The position numbers and the translations under genes were made by a program. Of a stretch of DNA of 56,609 bases, positions 23,356 through 36,694 are shown in pieces. The stretch is from an uncultured Clostridium sp. GTDB lineage: Bacteria; Bacillota; Clostridia; TANB77; CAG-508. Positions within the stretch are counted from its first letter, which is position 1, and each line of letters starts with the position of its first letter. Location: assembly GCA_946496575.1 (NCBI GenBank), contig CAMMHE010000005.1, positions 1 to 56,609 of the forward strand, read 5' to 3'. A model generated the notes under the pieces. It made no database searches and was not told the origin of the DNA. It was given only the letters and a program-made list of their open reading frames with translations.

Positions 23356-23384
23356 TTGATTTATGATTTAGTATGGTGTACAAT
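23356..23384 (+). promoter_or_regulatory. candidate SigA-type promoter of the Tad-like operon
   Basis: TTGATT-17 nt-TACAAT (preceded by TG), about 55 nt upstream of the 23442 start. Confidence 0.45.
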
Positions 23385-23441
23385 AAAATAAATCGAATTT
23401 TGTAAAAAAATATACAAAATAGCGAAAAGGGAGGAATTATA

Positions 23442-24695
23442 ATGGCTTCAAATCCAATACAAAAAAAAGTAAGAAATTCAATGTTATTAGGAGCTTTAAT
23501 TACATTAGTAATCACAGGAATAATTATAGGGCTTTTATTAATGCAATTAATGAAAGTAAATAAAGAGCAAGAAGAATTAAAAGCTTCATATGTATCAGTT
23601 TATACATTAAGTCAAGATGTTAAATCAGGACAAGTACTAACAGAAGATATGTTTAAATTAGGAAATGTTTTATTAGAACATGTACCTAATAATGCAACAA
23701 CTGATATATCAACATTTACAAATTATTCATTATCAGATAGTGAAGGAAATAAAGTATATACAGATAAAGAAGGAACATATCTAGTAAAAACAAGTGAATA
23801 TTTAGAAGTATTTCTAGATGAATCAGGAAAATATTATACATATGCAAGCAATGGAGAAAAAACAAATTTAGATAATATAAACTCAAGAAATGTAATACAA
23901 GATGAATACGGAATGTTCATAGTTCAAGAAACTCAAGGAAAGACTAGACTTTATAAAGAAGACTTAACAGATCAATATTACATATTAAGAGTAAGATATA
24001 ATACTGCGGAAAACTCAAATCAACCAGTTAGAGAAAAAGAAAATATAACAATATTAGGAGCACCATTGATAGCAAAAGTAGATATGAATTCTAATACAGT
24101 ATTAACATTGGATTTAATATCAGTAGGAAGTTTGGTAACAGCTGATGTAAGAAAACAAGAATACAATGCCATAGTATTACCAATGGATTTAGCTACAGGA
24201 GATTATGTAGATATAAGATTACAATTACCATCAGGACAAGACTTTATAGTTGTATCTAAAAAATCAGTTGAAATACCAATAGTGCAAGGTATGGATTCAA
24301 CAGATACTGTATGGATGCAACTTTCAGAAGACGAAATCTTATCAATGTCTTGTGCAATAGTAGAAGCTTATAGAATAAATGGTTCAAAATTATATGCTAC
24401 AAAATATACTGATCCAGGAATGCAAGAAGCAGCGATACCAACATATCCAATAAATGCTGAAACAGTAGCATTAATACAAGCAGATCCAAATGTAACAGAA
24501 ACAGCAATGAATAATTTAAGAGCTAGATATAATGCAAGTTTAAGAAATGAATATATAAATAATGAATTACAAAAAGACGGAAATAGCGAATCAAACATAC
24601 CAGGCAAAATAAATGAAAGTATAACAAAGACACAAGACCAAAGAAAACAATATTTGGAAGGATTAGCAAACGATGCAGCAAGCGGTGCATATTAA
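23442..24695 (+). CDS. CpaB/RcpC-like pilus assembly protein with large insertion
   Basis: 417 aa. N-terminal TM (LLGALITLVITGIIIGLLLM), SAF-like VSVYTLSQDVKSGQVLTEDMFKLGNV, later AIVLPMDLATGDYVDIRLQLPSG as in CpaB. AGGGAGG RBS. Confidence 0.65.
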   Translation: MASNPIQKKVRNSMLLGALITLVITGIIIGLLLMQLMKVNKEQEELKASYVSVYTLSQDVKSGQVLTEDMFKLGNVLLEHVPNNATTDISTFTNYSLSDSEGNKVYTDKEGTYLVKTSEYLEVFLDESGKYYTYASNGEKTNLDNINSRNVIQDEYGMFIVQETQGKTRLYKEDLTDQYYILRVRYNTAENSNQPVREKENITILGAPLIAKVDMNSNTVLTLDLISVGSLVTADVRKQEYNAIVLPMDLATGDYVDIRLQLPSGQDFIVVSKKSVEIPIVQGMDSTDTVWMQLSEDEILSMSCAIVEAYRINGSKLYATKYTDPGMQEAAIPTYPINAETVALIQADPNVTETAMNNLRARYNASLRNEYINNELQKDGNSESNIPGKINESITKTQDQRKQYLEGLANDAASGAY

Positions 24696-24727
24696 AGTTT
24701 TAAGGTCATTTGCATGACCTTAAAACT
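24696..24727 (+). promoter_or_regulatory. perfect 14-bp stem-loop between operon genes 1 and 2
   Basis: AGTTTTAAGGTCAT-TTGC-ATGACCTTAAAACT starts immediately after the stop codon; no U-tract follows. Confidence 0.6.
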
Positions 24728-24755
24728 ATATTATACAAAAGGGAAAGGAAAAAAT

Positions 24756-33778: not shown

Positions 33779-33852
33779 GGACTGTCCTAAAATGGGATAT
33801 TAATTTCTTAAGAAGTTTAATTTAAGATTCCATTTTAGAACAGTTCATTTTT
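33779..33852 (+). terminator. long imperfect hairpin plus T5 inside the operon (attenuator or partial terminator)
   Basis: GGACTGTCCTAAAATGGGAT...ATTCCATTTTAGAACAGTTC arms around the TTCTTAAGAA palindrome, followed by ATTTTT. Confidence 0.5.
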
Positions 33853-33865
33853 GAAAGGGAAAAAT

Positions 33866-36628
33866 ATGAAGTTACAAAGTCTTGCAATAATATTTATATT
33901 AATAGTATTGCCTTTAACCATTATTTTAACTGAATATTCAAATGCCCAACTGCAAACGATGGAACTACAAAAATTATATGATTCTAGACTTATTACTGCA
34001 ACATATGATGCATTAAAGGCATTTCAAATAAATACATTTAATGATACAGAATCAGACATAGCGGGAAGTAAATTAGAAAGTATAGAAGCGTCAACAAATG
34101 CATTCTTCAATTCTATGGAATCAGGGTTTCGTTTACAAGGATATGCAAAGGAAGATTTACAAAAATATGTACCAGCATTAGTTTATACAATGTATGATGG
34201 ATATTATATATATTCACCATATGAAAATGTAGCAACAACAAATGATGATACAGGAGTTTCTATAGATGCTTTTTCATCTAATAATGAAATAGAATATGGA
34301 TTTAAACCATATATATATTACAGTTGCCGATATAAGCCAAACTCAACTTCAGATTTTATAATAACATATGCATTAGACAATCATATATCAATACAGGGAA
34401 TTATAAATGGAGAATACATAAACAAGTCAGGATATTTACTTACAAATGTAACATTTTCTGAAAGTAATAATACTTATTATTATGATGGAATAGAAATTAA
34501 ACCTGAAAACTCATTAACGGAAAATTTAGTTCAAAAAGATTCAGATGGAAATATATCATCTATGACATATAAGTATATAAAACTAAATGGAGTCAAATAT
34601 TATTTAAATGAAGGAGCAGAAGAATCAAATCAATATATTTTTCGTATATTAAATGGTACAAGACTAATACAAGTATCTAAAAAAGGTGACCCACAAAACT
34701 ATGAAAAATTCAAAAATTTAATAGAAAACAATACTAGTGCAATAAATTATTATAAAGAAGCATATGAATTTACCAAATGGTTAACAAGTAATTCTACATT
34801 AAATCAGCTAAAATCAAGTGATGCAATAGATTCAGAAGGAAATTCTATTAATTTGTCAGAAGGAACATATAATTATATATTCCAAAGTGATGTAGGGCAA
34901 ACAGATATACCATTTGAATATCCAAATTCTAACTTTAATTCAGAGAGAAAGGCAGTAATAAGATATTCAATTGAAAGCAGTTTATCAGTATCAATAGCTA
35001 ATTTTAATAATTATTCAGGAAGTACAAATAATTTTCAAATGCCAAAATTAAAAGAAACAGAATGGGAATTATTAGAAAATCAAGTATCTATAATTAGTTT
35101 TTTACAAGGTTTAAGTATAGGTGGAAAAATATATAATGGATATACTGTAGTAACAAATGATAAAACCAAAGAAGTAGTAAAAGAAGAAAGCATTTATATA
35201 GCTTCAAATGGATATTACCATAAGGTAAATGACAATGATTTAAAAGAAAATGGTACAGTATCTTTAAATTCAGCATTAGGAATATTGTCTTTAGATTTCC
35301 AAATAAGAAAAGACATGGCAACAGAAGTATACTATACACCAAGAAGTGAATTAGGATGTTATACAAGTATAGTAAATAGCAATAATGTAGATAATAATAG
35401 TGAATCAATATATGAATATTTAAAAAATACAGGTGAAGTTAGTGATCAACTAAAACAATTATATTATACTGCATTAGGAAGAGAAAGATACGGAACATTT
35501 AAAACTGAAAATCAAGATAAAGTAACAGATATAATAGGAGACATGATTTCAGGTACAAGTTCAGGCAATTCAGATCAAAATACAGATGATAGTGCACCAA
35601 ATGTAGAAATTATAGGGAATACAAGCTTTACGTTATCATCAGCTACAACACAAGTTGACATCGGACCAAAAGTAAAATTTTATGATAGTGAAAGTGGAAT
35701 AGAATATGCAAAATATATTTTTATCCCTGAAGGTGAAACTCCACCTGACAATTTAAATGAGTGGAATGATTTATCTATAAATGGGGATGGAAAAGAAGCA
35801 ACAACTGTGCAATTATCTAAAACTGTTACAACTACAGGCAATTGGACATTATATGTACAAGTGAAAAATAAGGCAAGCCAAGGTCAAACAGTAAAATATG
35901 CTACAAGAACATTTACAATAAAAAATGAAATTGTGCCAATAATAAGAATATATAAAGAAGATGGAAGTTTAGAAGTAAGCACAGAAGATCAAAATATTAA
36001 TACACAGCAATATACAATACCATCCAATTCAACAATGATTACATTTAAGAGAAGAATAGTTATACAGCCACAAGATGGAATTTCAGTTGTACAATACAAT
36101 TTTTCACCAATAAATTCACAGACTTCACAACAAATTAACTTTAATAATGGAGATACAATTATATTTAGTGCATCTAGTCCTGGAACGTATATATTGACAA
36201 TAAAAGTACAATATTTTTCTGGGGAAGCTAGAACACTTACAGTTCCATACAATATAACAAAAGATACAAGTTCAGAAATGCCAACAGTGCAAATTGTAGA
36301 TACAGATGGGAAAACAAGTTATAAAACATCATCAACAGCTTATCAACCAATTACAATAAGAAAACAAATTAAAGCTAGTAGTAATATTGGAATAAGTTCT
36401 TTACAATATGCAGTAACAGATGAAAGCAATATTAACAATGTAACAAATTGGATAAATGCTATAGATGGAGGAAATTTTGGAAAAAATGAAATAGTAAAAG
36501 ATATATCTTCAGTACAATATATTTCAGGAACTACACATATTTATATACATGTAAGAGCAACAGATAAAAATGGTAATATAAAAACTACCACAAAATCTTA
36601 TTTGTGTGGAAATTTTCAAGACTATTAA
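33866..36628 (+). CDS. giant TadG-like N-terminally anchored protein with three C-terminal beta-rich repeat modules
   Basis: ATG 33866 after AAGGGA (ORF opens at 33851). MKLQSLAIIFILIVLPLTIILTEY then LQ..ELQKLYDSRLITATYDALKAF (TadG-like). Residues encoded about 35590-36625 form three ~100-aa modules, each with G-I-[ES]-x-x-[KQ]-Y. Confidence 0.6.
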   Translation: MKLQSLAIIFILIVLPLTIILTEYSNAQLQTMELQKLYDSRLITATYDALKAFQINTFNDTESDIAGSKLESIEASTNAFFNSMESGFRLQGYAKEDLQKYVPALVYTMYDGYYIYSPYENVATTNDDTGVSIDAFSSNNEIEYGFKPYIYYSCRYKPNSTSDFIITYALDNHISIQGIINGEYINKSGYLLTNVTFSESNNTYYYDGIEIKPENSLTENLVQKDSDGNISSMTYKYIKLNGVKYYLNEGAEESNQYIFRILNGTRLIQVSKKGDPQNYEKFKNLIENNTSAINYYKEAYEFTKWLTSNSTLNQLKSSDAIDSEGNSINLSEGTYNYIFQSDVGQTDIPFEYPNSNFNSERKAVIRYSIESSLSVSIANFNNYSGSTNNFQMPKLKETEWELLENQVSIISFLQGLSIGGKIYNGYTVVTNDKTKEVVKEESIYIASNGYYHKVNDNDLKENGTVSLNSALGILSLDFQIRKDMATEVYYTPRSELGCYTSIVNSNNVDNNSESIYEYLKNTGEVSDQLKQLYYTALGRERYGTFKTENQDKVTDIIGDMISGTSSGNSDQNTDDSAPNVEIIGNTSFTLSSATTQVDIGPKVKFYDSESGIEYAKYIFIPEGETPPDNLNEWNDLSINGDGKEATTVQLSKTVTTTGNWTLYVQVKNKASQGQTVKYATRTFTIKNEIVPIIRIYKEDGSLEVSTEDQNINTQQYTIPSNSTMITFKRRIVIQPQDGISVVQYNFSPINSQTSQQINFNNGDTIIFSASSPGTYILTIKVQYFSGEARTLTVPYNITKDTSSEMPTVQIVDTDGKTSYKTSSTAYQPITIRKQIKASSNIGISSLQYAVTDESNINNVTNWINAIDGGNFGKNEIVKDISSVQYISGTTHIYIHVRATDKNGNIKTTTKSYLCGNFQDY

Positions 36629-36660
36629 TGATATTATAAAATAAAGATTAAAAAAAATAA

Positions 36661-36694
36661 AAAAGGTTATCCTAATAAAGGGTGACCTTTTTTA
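36661..36694 (+). terminator. rho-independent terminator of the Tad-like operon
   Basis: AAAAGGTTATCC-TAATAAA-GGGTGACCTTTT (two G-U pairs) followed by TTTT; ends 2 nt before the spoIVB ATG. Confidence 0.7.

Follow-up and report, generated by a model that had tools for sequence, protein, structure and literature searches.

A probable Tad-like filament operon with leaderless subunits and a frameshifted motor gene in an uncultured Clostridium of the order TANB77

The stretch of DNA analyzed here, referred to below as the window, comprises 56,609 nucleotides of contig CAMMHE010000005.1 (assembly GCA_946496575.1) from an uncultured Clostridium sp. of the order TANB77, family CAG-508. Twelve co-oriented genes on its + strand, spanning 23442..36628 and separated by intergenic gaps of 11–91 bases in the open reading frame (ORF) calls, would form, with a probability that we put at roughly 0.6, a TANB77-type Tad-like (type IVc-related) filament operon whose subunits lack leaders and whose assembly would be independent of a peptidase. 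An earlier reading of the same DNA, made from the sequence alone (the original prediction), had already recognized twelve closely set, co-oriented genes, as found here, and had interpreted them as a Tad-type core combined with a non-Flp subunit family in a spore-forming monoderm, an interpretation that our results support. Because one of the genes, encoding the ATPase, is split, the operon is seen as thirteen ORFs. Its genes, denoted g01 to g12, and the position of the lesion in g04 are as follows.

23442..24695, + strand: g01, 417 aa, CpaB/RcpC-like protein with one transmembrane (TM) helix and a putative SAF domain; counterpart of protein 927 of Kim et al. 2024 (Nat Commun 15:10726, PMC11680825).
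24714..25433, + strand: g02, degenerate protein of the ParA/MinD fold without a Walker A motif, TadZ-like; counterpart of protein 928 of Kim et al. 2024.
25445..26272, + strand: g03, 275 aa, ParA/CpaE-like protein with a conserved GKT; counterpart of protein 929 of Kim et al. 2024.
26289..28227, + strand: g04, CpaF/TadA-like ATPase with an N-terminal TM anchor, split by a frameshift into ORFs 26289..27722 (477 aa) and 27667..28227 (186 aa).
27633, + strand: single inserted C that, by comparison with orthologues, shifts the ATPase frame in the Walker B segment, between VNII and GEV.
28297..30360, + strand: g05, 687 aa, polytopic protein, presumed fused TadC+TadB platform, directly 3' of the ATPase gene.
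30409..31062, + strand: g06, 217 aa, leaderless MENATKAL subunit paralogue, from hhalign comparison with g07 and g09.
31118..31588, + strand: g07, 156 aa, leaderless MENASRAL subunit paralogue, from the start-codon survey and hhalign.
31680..32111, + strand: g08, 143 aa, MKK-hydrophobic N-terminus and a globular domain homologous to those of g06, g07, and g09 (hhalign probability 95–98.7%).
32200..32610, + strand: g09, 136 aa, MENATKAL, candidate major subunit, present in 1–3 tandem copies in relatives.
32636..33187, + strand: g10, 183 aa, MENGVEAL, sharing only its N-terminal segment with the other MEN proteins.
33232..33759, + strand: g11, 175 aa, separate family with an M-[GSN]-D-[TS]-hydrophobic helix N-terminus; Paenibacillus homologue at E 6e-12.
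33866..36628, + strand: g12, 920 aa, N-terminally anchored homologue of 'pilin 938'; 33866 is the likely true start, judging from orthologues.

The seven proteins encoded downstream of g05 have N-termini of the types MENA..., MKK..., MND..., and MKLQ.... Four of their families, which are paralogous (g06, g07, g09, and g10), begin directly at Met-Glu-Asn (MEN) and lack both a leader and a Gly at −1; position 4 is occupied by Ala, but by Gly in g10. The motif MEN-A-[ST]-[KRE]-A-L is located at the first possible start codon in ~75–95% of the orthologues of these four families from 84 related loci of uncultured gut Clostridia, in which the set and order of all twelve gene families are conserved; for g06, the MEN triplet occupies that position in 72 of 83 orthologues. 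The N-termini of these subunits are thus leaderless, and the pilins of the type IVa locus in the same window (39593..49014), which carry classic leaders ending in Gly, serve as an internal control. None of the six small proteins matches Flp, TadE, or N_methyl in Pfam even at E ≤ 1, g06–g10 match no TadE-family model of NCBIfam, and g12 has no TadE or N_methyl match in Pfam and no Flp match there at E ≤ 0.1; the description of these products as seven N-terminally hydrophobic proteins lacking the Flp and prepilin motifs was therefore correct.

Proteins g06, g07, and g09 are clear paralogues of one another (hhalign probability 99.7–99.9%). In g09, residues 1–21 are nearly invariant among 61 sequences that are ~55% identical overall, with a conservation of 0.85 in the N-terminal part vs 0.45 in the rest. 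The copies of g09, one to three in tandem, share the N-terminal ~50 residues and vary in length and in their C-termini. An AF2 model of g09 (pLDDT 86) consists of a helix comprising residues 2–36, a second helix comprising residues 42–53, and a four-strand α/β domain that follows; the long N-terminal helix of this model agrees with the expectation that the subunits are pilin-like rather than ordinary globular proteins. A signal peptide has been predicted for protein 934, the equivalent of g08 (Kim et al. 2024, PMC11680825). As a separate observation, three of the related loci (L002, L003, and L004, at about 15850..17120) contain two or three g09-type copies, the first ~50 residues of which are identical or nearly so, and the number of copies differs among strains with identical ATPase proteins.

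The ATPase, g04, comprises 645 residues once its frame is repaired. Its best relative of known structure is CpaF (PDB 8rkd, E 1.1e-9, residues 268–538), its best NCBIfam model is TIGR03819 of the TadA family (E 1.3e-9), and its CpaF/TadA scores are well ahead of those for VirB11, TrbB, ComGA, PilT, and DotB. Since these scores lie far under the curated cut-offs, g04 represents a divergent branch. The segments GEQGCGKTT, RITETAFEL, NIIGEV, and THHAKT are all found in the repaired frame, and the ATPase motifs (Walker A, Walker B, and the His box) are invariant across 23 diverse members of the family. The predicted CpaF/TadA-like ATPase thus stands as regards its motifs and its closest relative, CpaF; the gene had been read as whole, and the frameshift that divides it into two ORFs had been missed.

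Intact orthologues of g04 comprise 634–673 residues and are 83–91% identical to it. They read DGSVNIIGEVATDP, coded by ...AAT ATT ATA GGA GAG..., and all relatives remain in frame without an additional base, whereas the gene in the window reads GTA AAT ATT ATA C GGA GAG GTT. Programmed +1 frameshifting at ATA-C-GGA was considered and rejected, as the P-site codon would be unable to re-pair in the +1 frame and the extra base is absent from all relatives. Since the one-base insertion falls in the Walker B segment, the motor, and with it the machine, is probably inactive in the strain represented by the window, judging from the sequence; the alternative is a consensus error shared between assemblies. 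In the form in which that alternative can be put most strongly, the split is an error of assembly or consensus, and the organism from which the window derives has an intact, functional operon. The insertion is, after all, a single base in metagenome-derived sequence, all remaining ORFs of the operon are intact, and platform ORFs look truncated in the metagenome-assembled genomes (MAGs) of several relatives as well. However, the same C is inserted in L089, an independent contig of another assembly that differs from the window at one position in 22,064 bases, and position 27633 lies outside any homopolymer run, so that we regard an artefact as rather unlikely. If the lesion is real, some strains may have pilin genes without a working motor, which is relevant where the abundance of pilin genes is used as a biomarker.

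In every relative, Paenibacillus among them (33% identity, E 4e-109), the gene for the polytopic protein g05 directly follows that for the ATPase. The two halves of the equivalent protein have been reported to be structurally homologous to TadC and TadB (Kim et al. 2024, PMC11680825). The two T2SS-F-like repeats (from the type II secretion system, T2SS) that the original prediction had placed in the 687-aa protein could not be recovered by any of the approaches applied. No Pfam match to a T2SSF domain is present in 25 orthologues of g05; its profile finds no match among PDB sequences, and comparison of its N- and C-terminal parts by hhalign reveals no internal repeat; and Foldseek finds no match for an AF2 model of low confidence (pLDDT 67). 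As the alignments were shallow (58–88% identity) and the model is of low confidence, these negatives do not amount to a refutation. In that model, both halves show the same pattern of helices, in which four or five short helices are flanked by a long one on either side, but this is suggestive only. In five of the related loci (L064, L053, L079, L033, and L027), the platform ORF is present only as pieces of ~1.3 kb, suggesting frameshifts or assembly breaks. It may be that machinery genes are repeatedly disrupted across the clade; alternatively, these breaks may stem from the MAGs themselves.

The first protein of the operon, g01, had been described as CpaB/RcpC-like, which is consistent with its TM helix and a weak SAF/CpaB signal (TIGR03177 at E 6.6e-4, 19 bits vs a cut-off of 71; SAF at E 6.4e-3). 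Judged across its orthologues, this signal becomes convincing, with SAF found in 18 of 30 (best E 3.5e-5) and ChapFlgA in 6 of 30, while the orthologue profile finds no relative among PDB sequences. The two proteins that follow had been taken for ParA/MinD-like, and the matches found, although weak, are consistent with this assignment. Among 27 orthologues of g02, nine match AAA_31 and five match CbiA; g03 itself matches CbiA in Pfam (E 1.2e-4), and its orthologue profile matches ParA 3ea0 (E 1.6e-3), as well as chains of GET3 and Soj. The profiles of g02 and g03 align with each other in hhalign at E 1.2e-4. The TadZ receiver-like domain has no match in g02 or g03, and all ParA-type scores are below the gathering thresholds. 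The orthologues of g02 begin MKKIGFIGAYDK, according to which the real start is probably located at 24756; depending on the start, the protein comprises 225–239 residues.

The ATPase family is abundant and strongly conserved. It includes thousands of proteins, the top 120 of which are 83–91% identical to g04; where a library is clustered at 50% identity, the family accounts for ~377 clusters (E<1e-30). A genome scan with a narrow ATPase alignment, which returned close relatives only, yielded at least 579 species-level genomes. The best 80 all belong to uncultured Clostridia of the gut, among them Clostridium sp. CAG:780 and Candidatus Scatovivens (82% ATPase identity). The latter is itself assigned to the order TANB77, family CAG-508, as are the closest relatives of the window. 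More distantly, the whole architecture is found at 31–38% ATPase identity in three loci, L085–L087. A homologous operon is also present in a cultured bacterium, Paenibacillus anaericanus (L090; GCA_003994475.1, RZNY01000043.1, 7471..16898), with 49% identity in the ATPase and 33% in the platform; it encodes homologues of g01, g03, and g11, as well as two subunits that start with MENLQT and MENIST, and it lies directly beside EssC- and WXG100-type genes of type VII secretion. The presence of MEN-type subunits in Paenibacillus makes the leaderless ME- N-terminus a family trait older than TANB77. Kim et al. 2024 (PMC11680825) state that, with the exception of the ATPase, the proteins of the cluster have at most a few homologues beyond TANB77; judged by homology, the operon of L090 extends the system beyond the exclusivity reported there.

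The absence of a cognate peptidase, claimed in the original prediction, is true of the operon itself, and no A24 peptidase is encoded within 10 kb of the ATPase gene in the 84 related loci, nor is an A24 gene found in the distant relatives L085–L087 or in L090. However, a PilD-like gene in the window had been overlooked. It belongs to a type IVa pilus locus (39593..49014) that looks complete, lies 3 kb past the end of the operon, and encodes PilB, PilT, PilC, several prepilins, and a PilM/PilN-like fusion protein of 542 aa, so that the genome carries two adjacent type IV filament systems. The gene in question is located as follows.

43015..43818: PilD-like gene in the type IVa locus, 6.4 kb downstream of the operon.

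The proximity of this gene raises the possibility that the MEN subunits are processed after all, by the PilD-like enzyme or by another peptidase, in which case the operon would be a Tad variant that depends on a peptidase in the ordinary way and whose leader is unusually short. Such a reading would accommodate g10, which with its Gly at position 4 can be written MENG/VEAL, and g08, which resembles a protein with a signal peptide. On the other hand, position 4 is Ala rather than Gly in most MEN proteins, and the 'leader' would consist of three uncharged residues. The PilD-like protein matches the A24 N-terminal domain (E 1e-29) and has no Peptidase_A24 match even at E ≤ 1, and a second catalytic motif of the GGGDxK type was not seen by eye. 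Together with the lack of operon-linked A24 genes in the 84 relatives and in the distant ones, these features make processing by a peptidase improbable in our view.

In the mechanism that we propose for a peptidase-independent filament, the one-TM CpaB-like protein g01 and the degenerate ParA-family proteins g02 and g03 would position and scaffold the machine. The CpaF-clade ATPase, presumably hexameric and unusually tethered by its own N-terminal helix, would drive g05, the presumed TadC–TadB fusion, which in turn would pull subunits out of the membrane and add them to the fiber. Translation of g06, g07, g09, and g10 would start at the invariant Met-Glu-Asn-Ala (with the Gly of g10 noted above), directly followed by the hydrophobic helix. 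Since these subunits are leaderless, a prepilin peptidase step should not be needed, and Glu2 may act as Glu5 does in classical pilins. The likely major subunit is g09, with g08, g10, and g11 as likely minor ones, whereas g12, large and bearing repeat domains, would be located at the surface or the tip. Gene content, conservation, the kinship of the ATPase with CpaF, the leaderless N-termini, and the frameshift are read from the sequences themselves; that a fiber exists, that it can do without a peptidase, and what each subunit does are inferences.

Conservation among the orthologues of g12 is confined to the first ~550 residues. Its C-terminal third (35530..36628) is a lineage-specific extension that contains approximately three divergent repeats of ~115 aa, of which the best-matching pair, segments A and C, aligns with z=8.4, and which makes the protein ~300 aa longer than most orthologues. 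The repeats are not recognized by Pfam, and the profile of g12 finds nothing in the PDB. The N-terminal quarter of the equivalent protein has been described as TadE/PilV-like, and recombinant protein 938 activates dendritic cells via TLR4 and, in mice, strengthens anti-PD-1 therapy (Kim et al. 2024, PMC11680825). As the cluster is the proposed source of the TANB77 protein that reportedly improves the anti-PD-1 response in mice (PMC11680825), the way in which its products are assembled and displayed has practical weight.

The upstream neighbors of the operon are hpf, a gene for a small acid-soluble spore protein (SASP) encoded on the opposite strand, and genes for a tRNA-Leu and a HAD hydrolase; downstream lie spoIVB (Peptidase_S55, E 1.6e-82) and murC. 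The position between the SASP gene and spoIVB, which 64 of 84 relatives share with the window, could be taken to indicate that no external fiber is made at all, and that the products form instead a piston or a short pseudopilus close to the membrane, serving protein export or remodeling of the envelope and possibly linked to sporulation. The subunit paralogues, many and heterogeneous, indeed resemble T2SS pseudopilins, and no adhesin domain is recognized by Pfam in the proteins of the operon. Nevertheless, the linkage to spoIVB is missing in the distant relatives L085–L087 and in L090, where the operon lies beside the type VII secretion system (T7SS), and both the tandem duplication of g09 with its C-terminal variability and the large, repeat-bearing g12 suggest exposure at the surface. 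We thus assign only a small chance to a device confined to the membrane. A sporulation function deduced from the synteny with spoIVB was also considered as the principal interpretation of the locus and was set aside, since the distant relatives lack that linkage.

Several points weigh against the interpretation of the locus as a filament operon with peptidase-independent assembly. A filament has never been observed, and TANB77 is uncultured. Every match of g01–g03 falls under the curated family thresholds, the likeness of g05 to T2SSF was not reproduced, so that its assignment as a platform follows the published Foldseek result alone, and a Foldseek search of the g09 model against the PDB finds no match, to a pilin or to any other solved structure (best E 0.8). 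A window of 57 kb leaves room for a peptidase encoded elsewhere in the genome. Finally, the frameshifted ATPase may mean that this copy of the operon is decaying.

If the MEN subunits do polymerize unprocessed, a step considered universal in type IV filaments drops out. We can speculate, tentatively, that the operon represents the first lineage of type IV filaments with peptidase-free, leaderless MEN subunits (Glu2 standing for Glu5), a membrane-tethered CpaF-like motor, and a fused platform, common to TANB77 and to a cultured Paenibacillus. A design common to both would be old and experimentally testable, and the operon of the culturable Paenibacillus anaericanus offers a route to the question, TANB77 itself being uncultured.

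The surroundings of the operon are those of a core chromosomal region. The G+C content of the window is ~27%, with no break in composition at the operon, and positions 1..17000 apparently correspond to a ribosomal-protein/rpoA region, which fits such a location. An origin of the operon from a mobile element was considered and is unsupported, as its context of hpf, the SASP gene, the HAD hydrolase gene, and spoIVB is conserved. The tRNA gene and two promoter-like sites are located as follows.

21131..21217, − strand: tRNA-Leu(CAA) gene, upstream of hpf.
23356..23384, + strand: sigma-70-like promoter match TTGATT-17-TACAAT, 5' of g01, scoring 9/12.
31637..31665, + strand: internal promoter-like site TTGCAA-17-TATAAT with TG before the second hexamer, 5' of g08, scoring 10/12.

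The first of these sites had been put forward as the promoter of the operon. It is present, but matches of 9/12 quality are not commoner than in shuffled sequence (85 found vs 122 expected), and because of this lack of enrichment, the site is supported by its position alone. The internal site fits the separate promoters predicted for several subunit genes by Kim et al. 2024 (PMC11680825).

Comparison of the operon with described systems leads first to a cluster of 10–14 genes, published as the conserved pilus gene cluster of TANB77 and reported in 122 of 129 of its species (Kim et al. 2024, PMC11680825). Proteins 927–938 of CAG-245 sp000435175 comprise 358, 231, 280, 640, 693, 165, 170, 143, 146, 237, 178, and 621 aa and were annotated as CpaB, TadZ, CpaE, TadA/CpaF, TadC+TadB, six pilin-like proteins, and a last protein that is partly TadE/PilV-like (PMC11680825). 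The operon of the window, compared by gene order, lengths, and description, follows the same twelve-gene order, with products of 417, 225, 275, 645, and 687 aa followed by six small proteins and one large, and agrees in annotation, lineage, and the absence of Pfam domains. It differs in its last protein, which at 920 vs 621 aa carries additional C-terminal repeats, and in its frameshifted ATPase. Since order, sizes, annotation, and lineage all match, the system has already been described: the locus is the published TANB77 cluster, known at the level of genes and annotation. The 'undescribed branch' of the original prediction must accordingly be abandoned, as the cluster has been published with the same gene assignments and its last protein has been tested experimentally. 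The related proposition, that the locus might fall within an already characterized Tad clade, turns out to be half true, as the same subunit genes have been described, although no known Tad clade with functionally characterized subunits contains it. In the published account (PMC11680825), peptidases, prepilins, leaders, and N-termini go unmentioned, as do homologues in Paenibacillus operons; the account is thus silent on how leaderless subunits would be assembled and on the involvement of a peptidase. The leaderless subunits and the frameshift in the motor gene of this strain appear not to have been discussed previously.

With the canonical Tad/Flp systems, such as Cpa of Caulobacter and Tad of Aggregatibacter, the operon shares an ATPase of the CpaF clade, a CpaB/RcpC-like protein with a putative SAF domain, putative ParA-family proteins resembling TadZ/CpaE, and a polytopic neighbor of the ATPase. 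Unlike them, it has no Flp pilin, no G/XXXXEY motif, no TadE/F/G matches, and no TadV. Its ATPase is ~200 residues longer and TM-anchored, a single 687-aa protein with no detectable T2SSF domain takes the place of TadB and TadC, and its subunits of 136–217 aa contain globular domains rather than being helices of ~50 aa. Imam et al. 2011 (PMC3244431) have reported tad-like loci of Gram-positive bacteria in which no prepilin motif is found ('no Flp' groups). Judged by their description, these loci resemble the operon in being tad-like genes of Clostridia that are distant from other tad genes and carry no prepilin signal; they differ in that they are reported to include tadV.

Garrett et al. 2024 (PMC11217815) have described Tad pilus genes that neighbor T7SSg in Paenibacillus and Acetivibrio. 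Compared with the window, L090 has a host among the Bacilli, five downstream genes rather than seven, and no linkage to spoIVB; like the loci of Garrett et al., it has EssC/WXG100-type genes, which here adjoin the homologous operon with its MEN-starting subunits.

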